From Candidatus Nomurabacteria bacterium (GTDB lineage Bacteria > Patescibacteriota > Dojkabacteria > SC72 > JAHDCA01): 64,000 nt of DNA. Under the pieces are notes generated by a model. The model worked only from the letters and a program-made list of their open reading frames with translations. It was not told the origin of the DNA and did not search any database. Shown in pieces: positions 1-23,086 of the stretch (position 1 is the first letter of the stretch; the number at the start of each line of letters is the position of its first letter). The position numbers and the translations under genes are program-made. The DNA lies in assembly GCA_020632395.1 (NCBI GenBank), contig JACKFQ010000002.1:83662-147661 (forward strand), written 5' to 3'.

Positions 1-122
1 CGTGGACCCCAATGATGATCGGTCGAACGCTCCGTATCAAATCCAAGTACCTCCGAGCCAGAACCTAGCAATCCAGCAGAGTATTTGAGTCCATGAAATT
101 CTGTTTCGATGAGAGTTTTCAC
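1..122 (-). CDS. N-terminal fragment of a protein running off the left edge; possible Pol-beta-superfamily nucleotidyltransferase (GS-x7-DTE motif)
   Basis: Minus-strand frame reads VKTLIETEFHGLKYSAGLLGSGSEVLGFDTERSTDHHWGP... from a GTG at 122 to beyond position 1. By eye this stretch is about 48% GC, versus under 30% for the adjacent array. Not in the ORF track because it is partial. Confidence 0.3.
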   Translation of the reverse strand, partial: MKTLIETEFHGLKYSAGLLGSGSEVLGFDTERSTDHHWGP

Positions 123-203
123 GACCTCTTTGTAAAATTGTTCACACAGTTGTTATCTTGGAATAAACTTTGTCAAATTTGAAGTATTTAGTTTTTTACT
201 AAC

Positions 204-641
204 CTATTCGAACTTTTTGTAGAACGTTTTTTGTAGATAGCAGGTAATTGCCATTCGACTTGCATCAAAATGAGGTGTCGGGAGATTTTTTGGATCTACC
301 CATAGCCACTCATCGCATTTTTCTGGTTCCATTATTTTCAGCTCACCGGAAAAGTCCTGGGCAAGTAAGGCGATCGAAACGTAGTGTAACCCTTCTTTGT
401 TGTAAGTTTCTAAGTTGTTGGTTACGGCTACCACTCGTGGATTTTTAATGTCCAAGTCGGTTTCTTCTTTAATTTCTCTAATCGCGCCATCTTCAAATGT
501 TTCGCCTGGCTCTAGATGCCCGCCTGGAATGGAATAGTATGGAGCATGGCTATTTTTTCTTTTGCCAATAAGGACTTTTCCGTCGTGATTTACAAGAATC
601 ACGCCTAATCCAACTCTTGGTATGTTTTTTTGTTTCGTCAT
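204..641 (-). CDS. NUDIX hydrolase
   Basis: Nudix box GGHLEPGETFEDGAIREIKEETDL (GX5EX7REUXEEXGU) in the 145 aa ORF. Confidence 0.85.
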   Translation of the reverse strand: MTKQKNIPRVGLGVILVNHDGKVLIGKRKNSHAPYYSIPGGHLEPGETFEDGAIREIKEETDLDIKNPRVVAVTNNLETYNKEGLHYVSIALLAQDFSGELKIMEPEKCDEWLWVDPKNLPTPHFDASRMAITCYLQKTFYKKFE

Positions 642-670
642 ATTTTAGAAAGGTTAGTTTAAAAATCTCG

Positions 671-701
671 CATAACGTTTCCCGATGAAGCGAAGTTTTG
701 C
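671..701. repeat. Cassette-junction conserved block 1, copy A (cATAACGTTtcccgATgaagCGAAGTTTTGC)
   Basis: One of seven related 30-35 bp elements, one in each intergenic region of the 0.2-5.6 kb array. They share the palindromic core ATAACGTTA followed by ATAT and GAAGTTTTGC. Confidence 0.7.
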
Positions 702-764
702 AAATTCCTTATGTAAATTAATATTTATTGGCAAAATTTGGACGGAGAAAACAATAAATTAATT

Positions 765-1142
765 TTAGCTCCGTAACTTTACTATAGTGTCCTTGAGTTT
801 CTTCATCAAATCGTCTTTATCGGTATATTCTATAAATTTATCAGTCACGATTTTTAGTGAGCTAGATGTTCTTTGTCCTGAATGATAAATACAAATAATT
901 GGACACTTTGACAAATCAGCCCACCCAAGCTCGATTCCCAGGCCTGTCGATGGATAAGAAACCTCCGCGATCATTAAGTCGCATGTCTTTATTATATCTC
1001 GCGTTACAAAATCACTAGCGTCTTCATAGGCTTCGTGCGGCAAGATAATTTCATGCTCCGTGTTCAATAAGCTTGAACGAATTGGTTCATATAGCTCTTT
1101 TTCAAAATCGTAATCGGTAGAGTGTCCAATATATATTTTCAT
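765..1142 (-). CDS. Nucleoside 2-deoxyribosyltransferase-like protein (flavodoxin-like fold)
   Basis: Motif STGLGIELGWA resembles the NDT catalytic-Glu motif (G-T-x-x-E-x-G-x-A). Size is 125 aa. Confidence 0.55.
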   Translation of the reverse strand: MKIYIGHSTDYDFEKELYEPIRSSLLNTEHEIILPHEAYEDASDFVTRDIIKTCDLMIAEVSYPSTGLGIELGWADLSKCPIICIYHSGQRTSSSLKIVTDKFIEYTDKDDLMKKLKDTIVKLRS

Positions 1143-1228
1143 AGAAGAGGGGATAAGATTAATTTATTGTTTTATGTAGTCGCATACACATTGTTAGATG
1201 ATGTGACATAATGGATATGGAGTCATTT

Positions 1229-1260
1229 CATATAACGTTAGCGTGTATGCAAAGTATGCC
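1229..1260. repeat. Cassette-junction block 1, copy B (catATAACGTTAGCGTGTATGCaaagtatgcc)
   Basis: Shares the ATATAACGTTAG core. Its stem portion GTGTATGC has an inverted partner GCATACAC at 1182-1189, followed by attGTTAGAT. Confidence 0.65.
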
Positions 1261-1401
1261 TAAGAACGGAACTGATATTATCTTCTCAAGATTTAAGCGA
1301 ATAGGCAAATTGGGGCGAGCCATTTTTAGAAATCAGTTGCACTGGACACGACAAAATGGCTCACAGCATAGCTGCTGTTGTGTGATGTAAAAAGAAAAGC
1401 G

Positions 1402-1794
1402 CTATATGCTCTTCATCTGAATCATTTTTGCCATTGCTATATATAAAACAAGACCTACCGAATAAATGATAATATAGGGGGCAATGGCAATCCAACGGTT
1501 AATGTAAAACAGATCAACATTTTGAAATGATCTTTCTATTGTCGAACCTACTACAAAAAAACTAAGAGCAACTAATGTATTGAGTAGAATTGTAAAATAC
1601 TGCCTACTGTCATCAACATGTATTAACTTTGTAATGAAGTAAGCTATTACGATATAAGCAATGGCAAAAATGCTCGTAATTGGCAATTGCAAAATCCATC
1701 TGCCATCTGAAGGAACATTTAATAACACATAAATTGTGTTTGCCACAAGAATTATCAAGAAACTAATGATAACTGAATTTGCAATTGTTTTCAT
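1402..1794 (-). CDS. Small integral membrane protein (about 4 TM helices), function unknown
   Basis: Hydrophobic segments fill most of the 130 aa ORF. Confidence 0.5.
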   Translation of the reverse strand: MKTIANSVIISFLIILVANTIYVLLNVPSDGRWILQLPITSIFAIAYIVIAYFITKLIHVDDSRQYFTILLNTLVALSFFVVGSTIERSFQNVDLFYINRWIAIAPYIIIYSVGLVLYIAMAKMIQMKSI

Positions 1795-1846
1795 ATGGGT
1801 TTGTTATTAAATAGTAGTAGCATTTTACCATTTCGTTTTGTTTCGT

Positions 1847-1874
1847 ACAACGTTATGGATATGCGGAGTTTTTC
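1847..1874. repeat. Cassette-junction block 1, copy C (acAACGTTATGGATATgCGgAGTTTTTC)
   Basis: Core AACGTTAT plus GGATAT and AGTTTTTC, matching the other junction copies. Confidence 0.6.
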
Positions 1875-1929
1875 TGGAACGTACTGGAGTGAAAGCGCTA
1901 GTGTACCCTGGAGTTTGTCCTTCAACCCG

Positions 1930-2448
1930 TTACTTCTCATCAAGATAAGAATTAATTGCTTCATCAATAATCGTAATATCTTTGATTTTTTTACTTTCAG
2001 GATTTTTACTAAATTCTTTAATCCATTCAATACAGTCATCAATATTTTCAACAACTAAATCAGAAAAGGTCAATAGAAAAGGATGAATCCAATCATCGAT
2101 TTTTGTACCATCAAAAACAATATTTGATCTTCTATGATGTGTATCTTTTGGAATTATTGAAATTACAGGTCTTTTGAAATATTTTGCAATTACCATTTCT
2201 TGAGCAGTTCCAGCTCCAAGTTTCTTCTTAGAATCAACGATGATAATATCTGCTGTTTTTACGAGATTAGAATCATGACCAACTAATTGCAAAGGTTTAG
2301 TTTCATCTTTCCATGCATCACCATCTGTAATTTCAACATTGGGAATTTTTGAAAGTTTTTCTTTGTATTCAACTTTCCAATCTTTCCAATTTTCTCTAAC
2401 ATCATCTCCTTTTGGTATTGAACCTAATAAAAAATTTTTAAGCGTCAT
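1930..2448 (-). CDS. Nucleoside 2-deoxyribosyltransferase-like protein, second paralog
   Basis: Motif KLGAGTAQEMVIAKY resembles the NDT active-site region. Size is 172 aa. The ORF-track entry 1791..2054 is an overlapping shadow ORF. Confidence 0.5.
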   Translation of the reverse strand: MTLKNFLLGSIPKGDDVRENWKDWKVEYKEKLSKIPNVEITDGDAWKDETKPLQLVGHDSNLVKTADIIIVDSKKKLGAGTAQEMVIAKYFKRPVISIIPKDTHHRRSNIVFDGTKIDDWIHPFLLTFSDLVVENIDDCIEWIKEFSKNPESKKIKDITIIDEAINSYLDEK

Positions 2449-2510
2449 ATATTTTGTGAAAATCCTTTATAAATTAAATCTTATTCTTCTAATGGTTGTA
2501 GGGTAAATTT

Positions 2511-2543
2511 CATTTAACGTTCCTGCGTATGCGATGTTTTTGC
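2511..2543. repeat. Cassette-junction block 1, copy D (catTTAACGTTcctgcgTATgCGatgTTTTTGC)
   Basis: Degenerate copy of the junction core. Confidence 0.55.
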
Positions 2544-2550
2544 GACCAAC

Positions 2551-2645
2551 GGGAGCAAAAATATGGGTGAAGCCCGAGCCGAGGGCTGAACCGTATATCC
2601 CTTGTTATACGCCCCGACGACAGAAAGGAGGAGAGCGCAGCGTGG
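2551..2645. repeat. Cassette-junction blocks 2-3, copy D (about 95 bp)
   Basis: About 90% identical by eye to 4401-4494. Contains the CGTATAtcccttgtTATACG hairpin and GGAGGAGAGCGCAGCGTGG. Confidence 0.75.
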
Positions 2646-2774
2646 CTTGAGTTCAAAAAATATTTTTCGTTCTGATTCATCAGAGAGGCTTTCGGTTATT
2701 TCTTATAAATTTGATTTTTTCGTTTTTCTTTTTCCAAGAGGGGTTAGGGATGAATTGGAAAAAATAAAAACTCC

Positions 2775-3440
2775 TTATTCTTTTTCATTAATAACAAACC
2801 ATTCTCCTTCACTAATCACTTCAATTTTGTTGTCAATAATCTTTAATGCAGAATCATCATCAAGTGCATAAATTGTTTTGCTTATTTCTTGACCAACTTT
2901 TTCTATATTTTCTCTTCTCATTTTTTTAAACCATTCAGAATTCAAATGTGGCAAGAAATAAAAATCTACAAAGTTTAAACCTTTTAATTCTTCAGTTTCA
3001 AGCATATCTTCTTCATAAATCACTTGGGATAATTTCAATGCTAAATCAGGATTAGTAACCATACTTCCAGCAGAAACACCAACATAAACTTTATCTTTAA
3101 ATAAATCAGACAACATTTCAGATAAACCTGATTTATTTAGCCATCTCATTAGATGATAAGTATTTCCTCCTTCAAAAAACAAAACATCAGCTCTTTCTAA
3201 ACTCGGTTTCCATATTTTTTCATCAACAGCTGAAATATCAGTAATTTCAATTGATTTGAAATTTTGTTTTTTCAAATTCACTAAATCAGTAATTAGCCAA
3301 TCTTTATCGCCCGATTCAACATTGCTTGCAGTAGGAATAAAAACAACTGTTGTTTCTTCTGGTTTCTTTCCAGTTAATTCAAACAAAGCATTGGCAATTG
3401 AATTGTTTGTTAGTCCGCTTGATGTTAATAGTAGTTTCAT
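2775..3440 (-). CDS. Peptidase E / S51-family dipeptidase
   Basis: LLLTSSG ... FIPTAS ... FFEGGNTYHLMRWL ... VYVGVSAGS match S51 peptidase motifs. Size is 221 aa. Confidence 0.8.
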   Translation of the reverse strand: MKLLLTSSGLTNNSIANALFELTGKKPEETTVVFIPTASNVESGDKDWLITDLVNLKKQNFKSIEITDISAVDEKIWKPSLERADVLFFEGGNTYHLMRWLNKSGLSEMLSDLFKDKVYVGVSAGSMVTNPDLALKLSQVIYEEDMLETEELKGLNFVDFYFLPHLNSEWFKKMRRENIEKVGQEISKTIYALDDDSALKIIDNKIEVISEGEWFVINEKE

Positions 3441-3604
3441 AATAGTAGGAGTAAAGAATTAAAATTTATAAATCAATCGTTTTCGGAACGAAGTGGAGAA
3501 AACACATTATTATCCCCCTCTTTTATTTTAGAAAAAATCAAATTTATTCCCTTTTTAGAAAGCCTATTTTCATTATTCATCTTAGAAAAATATTTTTTGA
3601 ATTT

Positions 3605-3638
3605 CACATAACGTATCCGAATATGAGAAGTTTTTTGC
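3605..3638. repeat. Cassette-junction block 1, copy E (cacATAACGTATCCGaATATgaGAAGTTTTTTGC)
   Basis: Junction core. A possible partner arm CGGATAatcagtGTTATAC lies at 3785-3803, just before the stop codon of the upstream gene. Confidence 0.6.
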
Positions 3639-3813
3639 CGGATTTCCCAGTATTTATGTACAGTTTAGCACATTCGTTCGACATTTGAATATGCTTTAAT
3701 TGATCGCCATTCGTAGGCAAAAAATTTGGATGGAATGAAAAAGACAAGTCCTTAAATTATTCAAAAGTGTCTTTTTCATGGAACCGGATAATCAGTGTTA
3801 TACGAGAGTTGAA

Positions 3814-4341
3814 TTAAGCGGCTCCTAGCAGTTTCAACATTTTCTCAGACCAATCAGTATTGCCCTTTGTTATTTCCTCCTTGAAAAATTTTATCATCAG
3901 CTGTTTTGGCTCATCCGATATTGCACAGTGCTTAATTTCTGGCCAAAATTCACGATACCATAATCCGATATTATCATGTTTTAAGTCGCAAGCACCGCCA
4001 TTTGGATCAGGTTCAATAAACAAAATCCTGTCTACGTGATTTGTAACAGAAGCTCCCAAGCATTGAATACAAGGTTCAAGCGTACTGTATAGAGAGACAA
4101 TTTTTGAATTATCCTTACGAACTTCCGCCAGCTCTTTGCCGTACTTAATTATTAGAGAATTTTCGGCATGATTCACAAAGGATTTTTGTTTATTGATTTC
4201 GTTGCCAGCGACGCCAAGCGTTTTATTATTGATAGCCAAAACAGCCCCCACAGGATAGTTCCCAAGCTTGAAAGTTTCTCTAGCAATACTGATGGCCGAC
4301 TCCAAGCATTGTTTATCGAATTGTGTTATTTCTTGCACCAT
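3814..4341 (-). CDS. CMP/dCMP-type (cytidine/deoxycytidylate family) zinc deaminase
   Basis: HAE (VNHAENSL) and PCxxC (LEPCIQCLG) zinc-binding motifs. Size is 175 aa. Confidence 0.75.
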   Translation of the reverse strand: MVQEITQFDKQCLESAISIARETFKLGNYPVGAVLAINNKTLGVAGNEINKQKSFVNHAENSLIIKYGKELAEVRKDNSKIVSLYSTLEPCIQCLGASVTNHVDRILFIEPDPNGGACDLKHDNIGLWYREFWPEIKHCAISDEPKQLMIKFFKEEITKGNTDWSEKMLKLLGAA

Positions 4342-4360
4342 ACAGAGCTTAATTCAATTT

Positions 4361-4391
4361 CATATAACGTTAGGGATATACGAAGTTTTGC
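4361..4391. repeat. Cassette-junction block 1, copy F (catATAACGTTAGGGATATACGAAGTTTTGC), the best-preserved copy
   Basis: ATATAAC-GTTA-GGGATATACG is the reverse complement of CGTATATCCC-TT-GTTATAC at 4442-4460, with a 2-nt versus 4-nt bulge. Confidence 0.75.
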
Positions 4392-4400
4392 GGAGTGAAA

Positions 4401-4494
4401 CGGAGCAAAATTTGGGTGAGGGGCGAGCCGAGCACCGAACCGTATATCCCTTGTTATACGCCCCGACGACCAAAGGGAGGAGAGCGCAGCGTGG
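4401..4494. repeat. Cassette-junction blocks 2-3, copy F
   Basis: Near-identical to 2551-2645. Contains the right arm of the attC-like inverted repeat. Confidence 0.75.
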
Positions 4495-4516
4495 TTCGTG
4501 GCGATAGCCGAGAAAG

Positions 4517-4553
4517 TCAGAAGTCGGCTTTTTTCTTTTTTATGAGCGCACAC
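4517..4553. repeat. Left arm of an imperfect inverted repeat flanking the methyltransferase gene
   Basis: TCAGAAGTCGGCTTTT ... TGAGCGCACAC are the reverse complements of AAAAGCCGACTTCTGA and GTGTGCGCTCA at 5425-5464. This arm abuts the stop codon. Confidence 0.7.
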
Positions 4554-5381
4554 CTATTTTTTCTTAACAATTATCATCATATGTCCACTTAAATCAACAA
4601 TTATTGGATCGGTGCAAATTTTGTTATGAATGGCTAACCAATTTTTCCATGCTTTTGGATATTTCTTTGCAAATTTATTTGTCGCTTCAGGATTTACATT
4701 TAAGCCTTCAAGACCCACTTTCTCAAGAATTTGCACATCTTTTTTGGTAAAAATGGACTCAAGCTCTGATGAGGTAAAATAATGACAATAGCCATCTCCT
4801 CTCCATTTATAATCTTCACCATCAGATACCAGTCCCTCGAAATGCTTTTTGTAAACTACTTCTTGTGGCCAACCAAGAGGAGTGGCTAGGAGTACCCCAT
4901 ACTTGCTCATTACTGAAACAAAAATTAAAGCACCCTTTTTTGCGACTCTAATTAATTCGTCAATTGCTTTTAGTCTTTCGGATTCTGGGCTGACATGAGA
5001 GAGTGGTCCGCCCAAGCACAATACTACATCAAAAGAATTATTTTCAAATTCAGATAAGTCTGTAATAGACCCCTCTACAATATCTTTAATTTTTGTTTGT
5101 ACCTTTGCTTTTTTAATTTGTTCCCTAGCAAGTTCTAGGTGTTCTGTGACCAAATCCAGAAGAACAACATCATATCCCATTTTTGCCAATTCAATTGAGT
5201 ATCTTCCGGGACCACCACCTGCGTCAAGAATTACTCCAGATTTTGGAAGATATTTTTTTAGGAATTTTATTGATGTGTCAAATTCTATTTTATGAAAGGG
5301 GTCTTGTGCTAATCTATTCCATTCATAAAGAGCATCTTTTTTGTAATTCTTTTTGGTTAGTTTTGTAGTCTTGTTTGCCAT
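4554..5381 (-). CDS. Class I SAM-dependent methyltransferase
   Basis: Motif I VILDAGGGPGRYSIELAK with the acidic residue at VVLLDL. Size is 275 aa. Confidence 0.8.
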   Translation of the reverse strand: MANKTTKLTKKNYKKDALYEWNRLAQDPFHKIEFDTSIKFLKKYLPKSGVILDAGGGPGRYSIELAKMGYDVVLLDLVTEHLELAREQIKKAKVQTKIKDIVEGSITDLSEFENNSFDVVLCLGGPLSHVSPESERLKAIDELIRVAKKGALIFVSVMSKYGVLLATPLGWPQEVVYKKHFEGLVSDGEDYKWRGDGYCHYFTSSELESIFTKKDVQILEKVGLEGLNVNPEATNKFAKKYPKAWKNWLAIHNKICTDPIIVDLSGHMMIIVKKK

Positions 5382-5424
5382 AATAATATTGTAAAGTATA
5401 AATGATTTATAATTGTTGTGTTAA

Positions 5425-5464
5425 GTGTGCGCTCATTCCTTCTTAATTAAAAGCCGACTTCTGA
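5425..5464. repeat. Right arm of the inverted repeat flanking the methyltransferase gene
   Basis: GTGTGCGCTCA ... AAAAGCCGACTTCTGA. A 16-nt and an 11-nt perfect reverse-complement match to 4517-4553, with different spacers. Confidence 0.7.
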
Positions 5465-5466
5465 TT

Positions 5467-5500
5467 GCGTATAACTCGTTACTATACGAAGTGTTTTCGC
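5467..5500. repeat. Cassette-junction block 1, copy G (attI-equivalent position next to the recombinase)
   Basis: gcGTATAACtcGTTActATACGAAGTgTTTTcGC lies between the first array gene and the divergent tyrosine recombinase gene. Confidence 0.6.
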
Positions 5501-5590
5501 AATTTGTACAGAAATGCATATACTATGCGAACAGTTTCTGACAAAATAACTCTAAACTAATTATCAATATCATCTCATAAAAAACAACAA

Positions 5591-6403
5591 ATGAAAAAAG
5601 AAATTACAGCAACTGTACGAGAATTAAAAATTCGCAATTACAGTTCTAAAACAATAAAAAGCTACACTAGTGGAATTCAAAAATACTTTCGGTTCAAGAA
5701 AAATAATTTCCAACAGCTAGATATCCACAATATACAAAACTTTTTACTCTCCTGTTCAGATAAAGGACTGTCTGCTAAGACAAGAGATCTATATTTGAAT
5801 TCAATTAAATTCTATTACCACAACGTCATTAAAACTTCAAAAAAGGTAGACATCAAATCTGCAAAACAAAATAAAAGTCTCCCTGTTATATTGAATCGCA
5901 AGGAAATCACAAAGTTGAGTGAAGTCATAAATAACCCCAAACACAAATTAATCATCTTGCTAGCATATGGAGCAGGATTAAGAGTTAGCGAAGTCGTCAA
6001 CTTAAAGGTCAAGGACGTAGATATTGATAATCTCACACTCCATATTAAGAAAGCCAAGGGGAAAAAGGATAGAATTACTATTATCCCAGAAAAAATTAAG
6101 GATGATCTGAAATTGATAATTAATTCAAGAGATCAAAACGAATATGTTTTTACAAGTGAACGAGGAGGAAATCTTACAACTCGTACTGCACAAAAGATTT
6201 TTACTAATGCTCTGAAAAAAGCAGGAATTAAGAAGGAGACGACATTTCATTCACTACGCCATAGCTTTGCAACTCACTTACTAGAAAACGGAGTTGATAT
6301 CAGATATGTTCAAGAATTACTTGGTCATCAAAATATTAGAACCACACAAAGATATACTCAAGTTACAAATCCGAAACTAAAAAACATTAAAAGTCCCCTC
6401 TGA
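5591..6403 (+). CDS. Tyrosine site-specific recombinase (XerC/XerD/phage-integrase family, 270 aa)
   Basis: Box I LRVSEV, box II HSLRHSFAT, catalytic Tyr in LGHQNIRTTQRYTQV. About 91 residues separate the box I Arg from the box II His, matching the Xer spacing, so no IntI-type insertion. Confidence 0.9.
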   Translation: MKKEITATVRELKIRNYSSKTIKSYTSGIQKYFRFKKNNFQQLDIHNIQNFLLSCSDKGLSAKTRDLYLNSIKFYYHNVIKTSKKVDIKSAKQNKSLPVILNRKEITKLSEVINNPKHKLIILLAYGAGLRVSEVVNLKVKDVDIDNLTLHIKKAKGKKDRITIIPEKIKDDLKLIINSRDQNEYVFTSERGGNLTTRTAQKIFTNALKKAGIKKETTFHSLRHSFATHLLENGVDIRYVQELLGHQNIRTTQRYTQVTNPKLKNIKSPL

Positions 6404-6561
6404 AAAGAAACATTTTCTAAGACTCGAACCCAATTATTAGAGTTATATAGGCATTCTTGCTTATGGAGTGATATTTACCTTACTTTGCGTCATTTCTACG
6501 AACTGCAAGATTAGTCCGCTGTATAAGGCTTTTAAAATGCTGAAGAAAAAGCTGACCTAAC

Positions 6562-6711
6562 TGGTCGGGGAGACAGGACCATCTCGGCAAACATGCCTCG
6601 ATGTATGATGCAGAATAATTCTACTGCATCATAGGTCCCTGCAGTAGGTTCAAGTCCAAATACACCATCCATACAGAGTAAACGACCACCTAACGGTGGT
6701 CATTTACTCTG
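6562..6711. repeat. 150 bp module at the 3' end of tRNA-Pro(CGG); duplicated at 22862-23012
   Basis: Nearly identical to the copy at 22862-23012. Begins with GTCGGGGAGACAGGAC, a 16-nt direct repeat of the tRNA 3' end. Contains the hairpins TGATGCAG/CTGCATCA and GACCACC-TAAC-GGTGGTC. Confidence 0.8.
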
Positions 6712-6785
6712 TCGGGGAGACAGGACTTGAACCTGCGACCTCTGCAACCCGAATGCAGCGTTCTAGCCATCTGAACTACTCCCCG
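6712..6785 (-). tRNA. tRNA-Pro, anticodon CGG
   Basis: Manual cloverleaf: acceptor CGGGGAG/CTCCCCG, D-stem GTTC/GAAC, anticodon arm CTGCA-TTCGGGT-TGCAG, T-arm GCAGG-TTCAAGT-CCTGT, discriminator A. Length 74 nt with no encoded CCA. Confidence 0.85.
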
Positions 6786-22861: not shown

Positions 22862-23012
22862 CTGGTCGGGGAGACAGGACCATCTCGGCAAATATGCCTC
22901 GATGTATGATGCAGAATAATTCTACTGCATCATAGGTCCCTGCAGCAGGTTCAAGTCCAAATACACCATCCATACAAAGTAAACGACCACCTAACGGTGG
23001 TCATTTACTCTG
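22862..23012. repeat. 150 bp module at the 3' end of tRNA-Pro(GGG); second copy
   Basis: Near-identical to 6562-6711, including the 16-nt direct repeat of the tRNA 3' end and both hairpins. Confidence 0.8.
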
Positions 23013-23086
23013 TCGGGGAGACAGGACTTGAACCTGCGACCTCTTGCACCCCATGCAAGCGCTCTAGCCATCTGAACTACTCCCCG
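23013..23086 (-). tRNA. tRNA-Pro, anticodon GGG
   Basis: Identical to the 6712-6785 tRNA except in the anticodon arm: CTTGC-ATGGGGT-GCAAG here versus CTGCA-TTCGGGT-TGCAG there, and one D-stem base. Confidence 0.85.

Follow-up and report, generated by a model that had tools for sequence, protein, structure and literature searches.

A 64,000-nucleotide stretch of a Candidatus Nomurabacteria genome (assembly GCA_020632395.1, contig JACKFQ010000002.1, positions 83,662 to 147,661; the whole stretch is hereafter the window) carries towards its left edge a region that we read, with a probability of roughly 0.8, as a chromosomal integron-like gene-capture platform in a bacterium of the Patescibacteria/candidate phyla radiation (CPR) type. 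The platform comprises a divergently transcribed 270-aa recombinase, an attI-like site and a series of seven or more cassettes, mostly of one gene each, on the other strand, and the grounds for this reading come from comparison: the architecture, the covariation of the sites, the split R' boundaries and a cassette shared between genomes. Such a layout, driven by a non-canonical Xer-like recombinase, had been proposed from the letters of the window alone (the original prediction); the comparison supports it, and nothing named there as contrary to it was found. Its two fixed components are as follows.

5591-6403, plus strand: tyrosine recombinase of 270 aa, Xer/IntI-related and without the IntI-specific domain (Pfam, NCBIfam and PDB comparison)
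5467-5503, minus strand: attI-like site (conserved in loci L005-L007, with unrelated DNA beyond; profile of 67 loci)

We compared the window with 80 loci encoding relatives of the recombinase (1.07 Mb, as 20-kb stretches around each gene), using a nucleotide profile of the junction element between cassettes and a covariance model, R1, built from an alignment of 16 short-loop sites (A3) and read at a match threshold of E <= 0.01. Across the 64 kb, the profile recovered six copies (665-698, 1225-1257, 1840-1871, 2507-2539, 3601-3633 and 4357-4388), each on the minus strand (E 3e-7 to 3e-5), with no copy elsewhere, and the covariance model found four complete hairpins, all within the array and on one strand, with none elsewhere. 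In cassette orientation the element reads AAACTTCGCATATACGGAAACGTTATGTGAAAT, with a variable central 11-mer; a seventh copy (5467-5503) is a distinct attI-type variant. The original prediction had described such an element at every junction, had placed a seventh copy in an attI-equivalent position and had seen no further copies in the window. Both models confirmed that absence, the seventh copy was borne out as an attI-type variant kept in relatives, and the junction element itself proved real and divergent, but the consensus given for it was too strict: with up to 3 mismatches it recovers a single copy, and a profile was therefore needed.

A second, cassette-specific arm lies 35-150 nt upstream of the junction 11-mer, is its reverse complement, and is preceded by NNNNTAAC, which matches GTTANNNN. 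Because this upstream arm complements the 11-mer, the junction element can be recognized as the 3' half of an attC-like hairpin, the full hairpins here measuring 107-207 nt.

4357-4463, minus strand: J6, attC-like hairpin of cassette 1 (R1, 91.2 bits, E = 3e-21; DNA fold)
3601-3807, minus strand: J5, attC-like site of cassette 2 (R1, 44.9 bits, E = 4e-9)
2507-2614, minus strand: J4, attC-like site of cassette 3 (R1, 70.3 bits; non-standard L-stem pairs)
1840-1871, minus strand: J3, the 3' half-site AAACTCCGCATATCCATAACGTTGTACGAAAC only (nhmmer, E = 3e-5)
1225-1387, minus strand: J2, attC-like site with a weakened L stem (R1, 41.7 bits, E = 3e-8)
665-698, minus strand: J1, 3' half-site (nhmmer, E = 1.3e-6)

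These six sites differ in their state of preservation. J6 is intact: its R stem (TAAC/GTTA) and 11-bp L stem are separated by a 1x3 internal loop and enclose two inner hairpins, R'' in this site, GCGTATAAC, being the exact reverse complement of GTTATACGC, the R' on the attI side. J5, which has long insertions in both inner hairpins, and J2 are recognizable. J4, whose 5' half is near-identical to that of J6 and whose L stem is largely broken, looks chimeric or decayed. J1 and J3 are present as the 3' half alone: for J3 we found no complementary 5' arm, no covariance-model match and no significant fold, and upstream of the J1 half-site (to about 745) we observed inner hairpins and a CCAAATTT motif, with no L'' partner and no covariance-model match.

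The attC regions of cassettes 3 and 1 share an 88-nt direct repeat at 89% identity (2558-2645 and 4407-4494), which reaches about 35 nt 5' of R'' (CCCCGACGAC..GGAGGAGAGCGCAGCGTGG). GC-rich TCGGGG/TCGGGTC segments ahead of R'' recur in other loci, and Logan assemblies break there. A variant L', CGCTTCATCGGG, occurs at 665-698 of the window and in two further loci (L049 8416-8449 and L072 9318-9351), the three being unrelated; a complementary L'' arm was not found in any of them, and this variant may represent a distinct subclass of site.

Sites of this kind recur throughout the related loci. The profile gave 101 matches in the 80 loci and the window (97 in relatives and six in the window, minus duplicates), none of which lay downstream of the recombinase or off the cassette strand. 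The covariance model identified 145 sites in the related loci, again all on the cassette strand, with 144 falling within the 399 kb of sequence that lies upstream of the recombinase genes; in the DNA searched the motif is thus not scattered near many unrelated genes, and such scattering was the outcome that the original prediction had held to speak against itself. The sole downstream match (L073 16317-16419, 36 bits) came from 605 kb searched. At least one modelled site was present in 49 of the 53 loci having at least 1.5 kb of upstream DNA, arrays held up to 11 sites, and site length in relatives had a median of 111 nt (range 61-209 nt).

In cassette orientation, each site reads 5'-NNNNTAAC-A-[L'', 11 nt]-(GC-rich hairpin)-CCCAAATT-(hairpin) and continues AAAC(T/A)TC-[L', 11 nt]-AAAC|GTTANNNNAAAT-3', the 3' half being conserved in sequence with a 33-nt consensus. 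RNAalifold and pair counting on A3 resolved four helices, namely the R stem (TAAC/GTTA), the L stem (11-12 bp) and two hairpins within the loop, between which CCCAAATT is conserved. In this alignment 93.4% of cells were paired, against 72% in shuffles, compensatory changes occurred at 14 pairs, and the covariation score was 0.538 compared to 0.146 for shuffled alignments (reached by 0 of 500) and 0.04-0.10 for slid partners. The reverse complement of the 11-mer likewise matched a site's own cassette (18.0) better than other cassettes (13.1, p = 1.5e-12). The internal loop between the R and L stems is asymmetric (1x3-4), with A opposite AAAC, or AAC in J6 of the window, and at the top of the L stem 112 of the 145 sites have G.T at one position. 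GTT[A/G] is nearly invariant in R', and a strict GTTRRRY fits 25 of 133 R' sites. The R''/L''/L'/R' boxes of an attC hairpin are therefore present with covarying stems in four window sites and 145 sites of relatives, and the attC-like structure that the original prediction had expected of the junctions is both there and covarying. Mismatches in the L stem over the 145 sites were balanced (A.C 56, G.T 45), which argues for a DNA rather than an RNA structure; as the UTR stems described below show no wobble bias either, an RNA-structure reading of the stems was rejected.

The boundaries of the cassettes provide a second line of evidence. Across 86 pairs, R'' was complementary to the R' of the previous junction at 3.57 of 5 positions (30 perfect) and to its own adjacent R' at 2.27 of 5 (3 perfect), the latter close to the 2.36 of 5 obtained with a random R'; the difference between previous and own R' was significant (p = 3e-9). 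That R'' complements the previous R' and not its own suggests that cassettes circularise and that exchange takes place between L' and the variable R', within AAAC|GTTA, a predicted exchange point that would be equivalent to G|TT in integrons. Crossover thus falls within R', and the 5' end of a cassette keeps the rest of its own R', as is also seen for J6 against attI.

The attI-like site itself reads AATTGCGAAAACACTTCGTATAGTAACGAGTTATACG in cassette orientation and lies about 90-125 bp upstream of the recombinase start codon. Its invariant GTTA occupies 5472-5475, and homology with relatives stops between 5471 and 5472. The DNA that the window has in common with its three closest relatives, whose recombinases are 77-85% identical to its own, is 5464-6550 alone: it starts at TAACTCGTTAC..., and to the left of that start the sequences are unrelated, so that these relatives hold entirely different cassettes and have only the recombinase and attI in common. 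The original prediction had named identical gene content in all relatives as an observation that would count against it, and the relatives show the opposite. Within about 230 nt upstream of the recombinase start, an attI-like site was detected in 55 of 67 loci (profile, E<1; many of the matches weak), with the consensus TATACGAAAACACTTCGTATAAAAACGAGTTA followed by cassette-specific bases. Taken together with the R' of the first cassette, the window attI forms an 11-7-11 dyad, ACTTCGTATAg-tAACGAG-TTATACGCAAT, as does the consensus with R', ACTTCGTATAA-AAACGAG-TTATGTGAAAT; by our own reading of these sequences, this would be the usual form of a tyrosine-recombinase core site. An attI beside a divergent integrase gene, serving as the point of insertion, is accordingly found here.

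On the far side of the recombinase gene, about 150 nt past its stop codon (6404-6550) are about 84% conserved, in L005 only, and include a T-arm-like AAGACTCGAACC. Four Logan contigs with the exact recombinase all stop 6 nt past its stop codon (window 6409), and three of the four begin in or within about 20 nt of attI. Contig ends flanking the recombinase gene in this manner suggest branch points of the assembly graph on both sides.

Complementarity also extends outward from the sites around the open reading frames (ORFs). In the window and in relatives, the 5' untranslated region (UTR) of a cassette is the reverse complement of its own 3' UTR, and the following pairs were located in the window.

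4517-4532/5449-5464, no strand: inverted repeat around the cassette 1 ORF (16 nt, 100%)
4542-4556/5422-5436 and 4586-4604/5409-5427, no strand: inverted repeats around the cassette 1 ORF (3' UTR against 5' UTR)
2652-2668/3585-3601 and 2705-2721/3531-3547: inverted repeats around the peptidase ORF
748-772/1149-1173: inverted repeat around ORF 765-1142
192-205/651-664: inverted repeat around ORF 204-641

We observed such UTR inverted repeats in 47 of 68 single-ORF cassettes, compared to 3.5% of cross-cassette controls (p = 1.4e-12). The UTR stem often begins directly after R' and reaches the stop codon, and its mismatches comprise 7 top-strand wobbles, 15 bottom-strand wobbles and 83 others. Many cassettes have an extra ~45-55 nt between the 3' UTR arm and R''. 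The UTR complementarity implies that, were a cassette circular or single-stranded, its attC stem would extend past the R box and leave the ORF as a loop at the far end; in a linear array, such folding may bring together the crossover points at either end of a cassette.

The 148 inter-site intervals had a median length of 728 bp, and the main ORF was co-oriented with the site in 127 of the 133 intervals that hold one; 104 intervals contained a single ORF (at least 60 aa) and 15 were without an ORF of at least 40 aa. Of the cassette proteins, 115 fell into 68 Pfam families, none with more than 4 members, among them dehydrogenases, methyltransferases, phosphatases, racemases, NUDIX, HNH, peptidase S51 and deaminases. 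Three cassette proteins recur across loci at different array positions. The clearest instance is a 1-kb cassette that is 90% identical at the nucleotide level between two loci whose recombinase genes are about 66% identical over a single aligning stretch: it stands second, after an attC, in L018 and first, after attI, in L070, and the homology begins exactly at GTTA. In another pair of loci (L049 7294-7835 and L074 1681-2218), an ORF and its 5' boundary are held in common (84%) and the attC-like sites differ, from which it follows that ORF and site can recombine or diverge independently.

We give almost no credence to the idea that these are regulatory or structural repeats (elements resembling repetitive extragenic palindromes, terminators or RNA motifs) in an ordinary operon-like cluster. 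The elements are intergenic, lie downstream of ORFs and form hairpins, as such repeats would, yet an Rfam scan at E up to 1 returned a tRNA as its one match and no family for the junction repeats. They are moreover found only beside this recombinase family and in a single orientation, R'' has its partner across the ORF, GTTA is the exact point where homology between genomes breaks off, the G.T and A.C mismatches are balanced, and cassette content is unrelated between relatives.

The recombinase sets the system apart from the classical integron. It matches Pfam Phage_integrase (6e-45) together with a SAM-like N-terminal domain, and motif positions give the catalytic set R131, a Lys in KAKGKK (about 154-158), H220, R223, H246 and Y255. 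The top PDB match was the Vibrio integron integrase VchIntIA (2a3v, 156 bits, in two stretches), with Pyrococcus XerA (4a8e, 153 bits) close behind. Aligned to VchIntIA, residues 175-196 of the query face IntI 179-243; because 22 residues occupy the place of 65, leaving about 43 aa missing, the IntI-specific insertion is absent. Scores against the integron-integrase models were below threshold, at 212.8 for TIGR02249 (cutoff 265, the match in two stretches) and 131.7 for PRK15417 (cutoff 435), and the additional domain of integron integrases (I2 helix, patch III) is thus lacking, in line with the original prediction of a 270-aa Xer-like enzyme without the IntI extra domain. A classical integron, having a true IntI together with canonical attC sites, would explain the layout, the resemblance of some R boxes to RYYYAAC/GTTRRRY (e.g. 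GCCTAAC/GTTAGGC) and the best PDB match, but it was rejected on the defining protein feature; few R' sites (25/133) are strictly GTTRRRY and the sites bear extra conserved motifs and branched loops, and we regard this explanation as scarcely credible.

More than 8000 relatives of the recombinase were present in the protein collection, many of them 55-85% identical and nearly all about 270 aa. They derive from WWE3, Dojkabacteria, Saccharibacteria, Gracilibacteria, Parcubacteria and other CPR groups, the nearest being in WWE3 and Dojkabacteria metagenome-assembled genomes (MAGs), with a few in MAGs labelled Omnitrophota, Atribacterota, Actinomycetota or Altiarchaeales. A viral contig collection held no relative, and in a plasmid collection the relatives were all at most 41% identical and XerA-like or IntI. 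The part of Smyshlyaev et al. 2021 (PMC8138268) available to us describes a 'Cand' subgroup of Xer-related recombinases of candidate phyla, to which the window recombinase probably belongs, and in that part draws no link to cassette arrays or attC-like sites.

Taken together, the sequences suggest the following mechanism for an integron-like platform. The recombinase would exchange strands at the invariant AAAC|GTTA; recombination between two attC sites would excise a cassette as a circle, and recombination between attI and attC would insert one beside the recombinase gene. Since the arms are cassette-specific and covary, the form recognized would be the folded hairpin, single-stranded or extruded, as in integrons, with complementarity that goes on past the R box and into both UTRs. 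Mobility of the cassettes, catalysis by this recombinase, the folding of the sites as single-stranded DNA and the strand that would fold, and expression of cassettes from a promoter near attI are all putative elements of this scheme.

Several observations weigh against the capture-platform reading. The window array looks partly decayed, given the half-sites J1 and J3 and the broken L stem of J4. DNA folds of single junctions were mostly non-significant against shuffles (z -1 to -2.9, with J3 positive), so that the junction structure is clear from comparison only. Gene order was identical in every Logan sample carrying window genes; the variation in cassettes that the original prediction had anticipated is seen between relatives, and within the window's own population all samples examined had the same order. 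Breaks in Logan contigs do occur at the repeated attC sequence, close to attI and 6 nt past the recombinase stop, which is suggestive of array polymorphism but not separable from low coverage. A promoter and terminator scan of the region gave matches at chance level; TGTACA-18-TATAGT overlaps attI (5510-5481, minus strand), in a region where promoter-like matches occur no more often than by chance. On the protein side, the recombinase lacks the I2 domain with which integron integrases read folded attC; it passes the XerA equivalog model NF040815 (232.8, cutoff 220); and class-specific recombinases such as 'Cand' are suggested, in the part of PMC8138268 available to us, as possible stand-ins for Xer. 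Finally, the 3' half-site is also plausible as a double-stranded core site for which folding would not be strictly required.

This last point can be developed into an explanation of its own, in which double-stranded 'simple sites' (L'-AAAC-GTTA...) recombine as at lox or dif and the upstream arm is a terminator or insulator. We consider it unlikely, if worth taking seriously: the 3' half is unusually conserved, as its 33-nt consensus attests, and is laid out arm-spacer-arm like a core site, only this half is kept at J1 and J3, and the I2 domain absent from the recombinase is the one tied to single-strand recognition. Such simple sites would not account for L'' and L' covarying with cassette-specific sequences, for R'' matching the cassette's own split R', or for complementarity that extends into the UTRs, and the lack of an RNA-type wobble bias runs contrary to a purely transcript-level role of the arm. 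Classical attC hold simple sites too, yet reportedly recombine when folded, according to work attributed to Bouvier (2005) and MacDonald (2006).

We also weighed whether the enzyme could be a housekeeping Xer, that is, the sole dimer resolvase of its host, with attI as its dif and the cassettes as hairpin mimics that integrate at dif in the manner of integrative mobile elements exploiting Xer (IMEX). In XerS/difSL and XerH/difH the dif site adjoins the recombinase gene. Besides the NF040815 score and the proposed Xer substitutes of candidate phyla, this explanation draws on the absence of any MAG appearing twice among the 80 loci, on the 11-7-11 dyad of attI and R', which is typical of dif-type sites, and on the window itself, where no recombinase paralogue was found in the 64 kb. 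We nevertheless judge it rather improbable. A sign change in GC skew was absent in 15 of 21 testable loci, several of them strongly same-sign; flanks were unrelated even at 77-85% recombinase identity, and the sites stand in arrays, which does not describe a single terminus dif at a conserved position. The recombinase is accordingly not placed at a conserved or GC-skew-switch position; the original prediction had listed a dif-linked position in every related genome as contrary to its own view. Identities of 55-70% across very distant lineages (MAGs labelled Atribacterota, Actinomycetota and Altiarchaeales) are more readily explained by horizontal spread or contaminated bins than by vertical descent of a housekeeping gene, and co-oriented single-gene arrays in 49/53 loci are beyond known IMEX behaviour. 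A housekeeping Xer and a cassette platform are not mutually exclusive, and a dual role is possible.

The genes of the window array are seven minus-strand ORFs arranged head-to-tail. Both these and the divergent recombinase ORF were correctly called in the original prediction, and the spacers, put there at 100-370 bp, measured 123-373 bp.

4554-5381, minus strand: cassette 1, S-adenosylmethionine (SAM)-dependent methyltransferase of 275 aa (Pfam Methyltransf_25/11/31)
3814-4341, minus strand: cassette 2, CMP/dCMP-type deaminase of 175 aa (Pfam dCMP_cyt_deam_1, 1.6e-14)
2775-3440, minus strand: cassette 3, peptidase S51 of 221 aa (Pfam Peptidase_S51, 4e-32)
1930-2448, minus strand: cassette 4, family-less protein of 172 aa (no Pfam, NCBIfam or PDB match)
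1402-1794, minus strand: cassette 5, hydrophobic (membrane) protein of 130 aa (translation; weak Pfam ABC2_membrane match)
765-1142, minus strand: cassette 6, 125-aa protein with weak DNPH1/nucleoside 2-deoxyribosyltransferase similarity (Pfam Nuc_deoxyrib_tr, 3.5e-4, sub-cutoff)
204-641, minus strand: cassette 7, NUDIX hydrolase of 145 aa (Pfam NUDIX, 3.8e-22)

Pfam agreed with the families first assigned to the NUDIX, peptidase, deaminase, methyltransferase and recombinase genes. Of two proteins originally called NDT-like, only 765-1142 has any support, which is weak and comes from Pfam and from the PDB (DNPH1/Rcl, E = 5e-4). For 1930-2448 no family was detected in Pfam, NCBIfam or PDB searches. 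Enzymes of nucleotide modification or salvage (NUDIX, DNPH1-like, dCMP deaminase, methyltransferase) are represented among the window cassettes (204-5381). NUDIX, peptidase S51, deaminase and methyltransferase cassettes recur in the arrays of unrelated genomes, the window peptidase being 28% identical to a cassette peptidase of L024, and the adjacency of recombinase and methyltransferase recurs in Logan contig L001.

The array runs on beyond the left window edge (position 1): Logan contigs L093 and L095 contain more co-oriented ORFs and an attC-like site (44.9 bits) ~1.4 kb past the edge, beyond which the next gene sits on the opposite strand. This continuation, the larger hairpin around each junction element and the UTR inverted repeats were absent from the original prediction. 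The GC content of positions 1-6000 is about 31-40% (mean about 34.5%) and that of the remainder about 37-45% (about 40%), a modest difference that the original prediction had overstated (25-30% against 40-48%). A tRNA-Pro gene lies at 6711-6785, 3' of the recombinase. The window holds two tRNA-Pro genes on the minus strand (6711-6785, cgg, and 23012-23086, ggg), each followed by a near-identical ~150-nt segment (6562-6711 and 22863-23012) that opens with a 15-nt copy of the tRNA 3' end, TCGGGGAGACAGGAC, holds an 18-nt hairpin (6673-6712) and lies outside the array. The tRNA-Pro gene was considered as an island attachment site and rejected, the 15-nt copy belonging to the repeat that follows both genes.

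If the gene-capture reading is true, CPR/Patescibacteria would gain a dedicated gene-capture mechanism, in tiny genomes whose means of gaining genes are poorly understood. The I2 helix is thought to have given integron integrases the capacity to recombine folded single strands (PMC4792948, PMC7790495), and a widespread I2-less cassette system with covarying hairpins makes both the need for this domain and the ancestral state directly testable. We lean, though narrowly, towards a broader proposal: an undescribed, phylum-spanning class of integron in which a minimal Xer-type recombinase lacking I2 acts on folded, UTR-long hairpins with the ORF as a dumbbell loop, either a model of the pre-IntI ancestor or an independent invention, and perhaps a major route of gene gain in CPR. 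No description of such a cassette system was found in the literature searched, the coverage of which was incomplete, so that an earlier description is possible. IntegronFinder-type searches require the IntI-specific domain and would at best report integrase-less attC clusters, and as repeated sites break short-read assemblies, such arrays are probably under-reported.

Among known systems, the pdif modules of Acinetobacter plasmids are alike in carrying small gene modules between Xer-type sites that move between replicons. Their sites, however, are oppositely oriented and served by a host XerC/XerD pair encoded elsewhere, whereas here direct repeats (145/145 sites of relatives and 4/4 of the window co-oriented) lie beside a dedicated recombinase and form long hairpins rather than 28-bp sites. 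The single-recombinase Xer systems (archaeal XerA/dif, XerS/difSL and XerH/difH) resemble this one in protein size and family, with the NF040815 threshold passed, in having one recombinase with a site beside its gene, and in the 11-7-11 dyad, and IMEX elements such as CTX phage likewise present a folded single-strand hairpin to an Xer enzyme. In contrast to these, up to 11 directly repeated sites with single genes follow here, the locus is usually off the GC-skew switch and its flanks are not conserved, and the cassettes lack replication and transfer genes and do not resemble phages or plasmids.

The integrons, above all the sedentary chromosomal ones, offer the closest comparison. Both have a divergent tyrosine recombinase with an adjacent attI, co-oriented, functionally diverse and mostly single-ORF cassettes with occasional ORF-less ones, and a terminal imperfect hairpin of comparable length (61-209 nt here) with the order R''-L''...L'-R' and an AAC/GTT core, and in both the crossover splits R' such that the 5' end of a cassette bears its own R' tail. 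Unlike in integrons, the recombinase here is without I2 and falls short of the integron-integrase cutoffs, sequence conservation is strong in the 3' half of each site (AAACTTC-N11-AAACGTTA..GAAAT), a 1x3-4 internal loop takes the place of the described extrahelical bases, two inner hairpins and the CCCAAATT motif are conserved, and the stem is prolonged into long inverted repeats of the 5' and 3' UTRs. The hosts differ as well, being CPR/Patescibacteria and a few other uncultured lineages; archaeal integrons, by comparison, have a canonical IntI (PMC9668308). Collectively, these comparisons describe a system that would be integron-like in operation and whose recombinase lacks the protein feature by which integron membership is defined.

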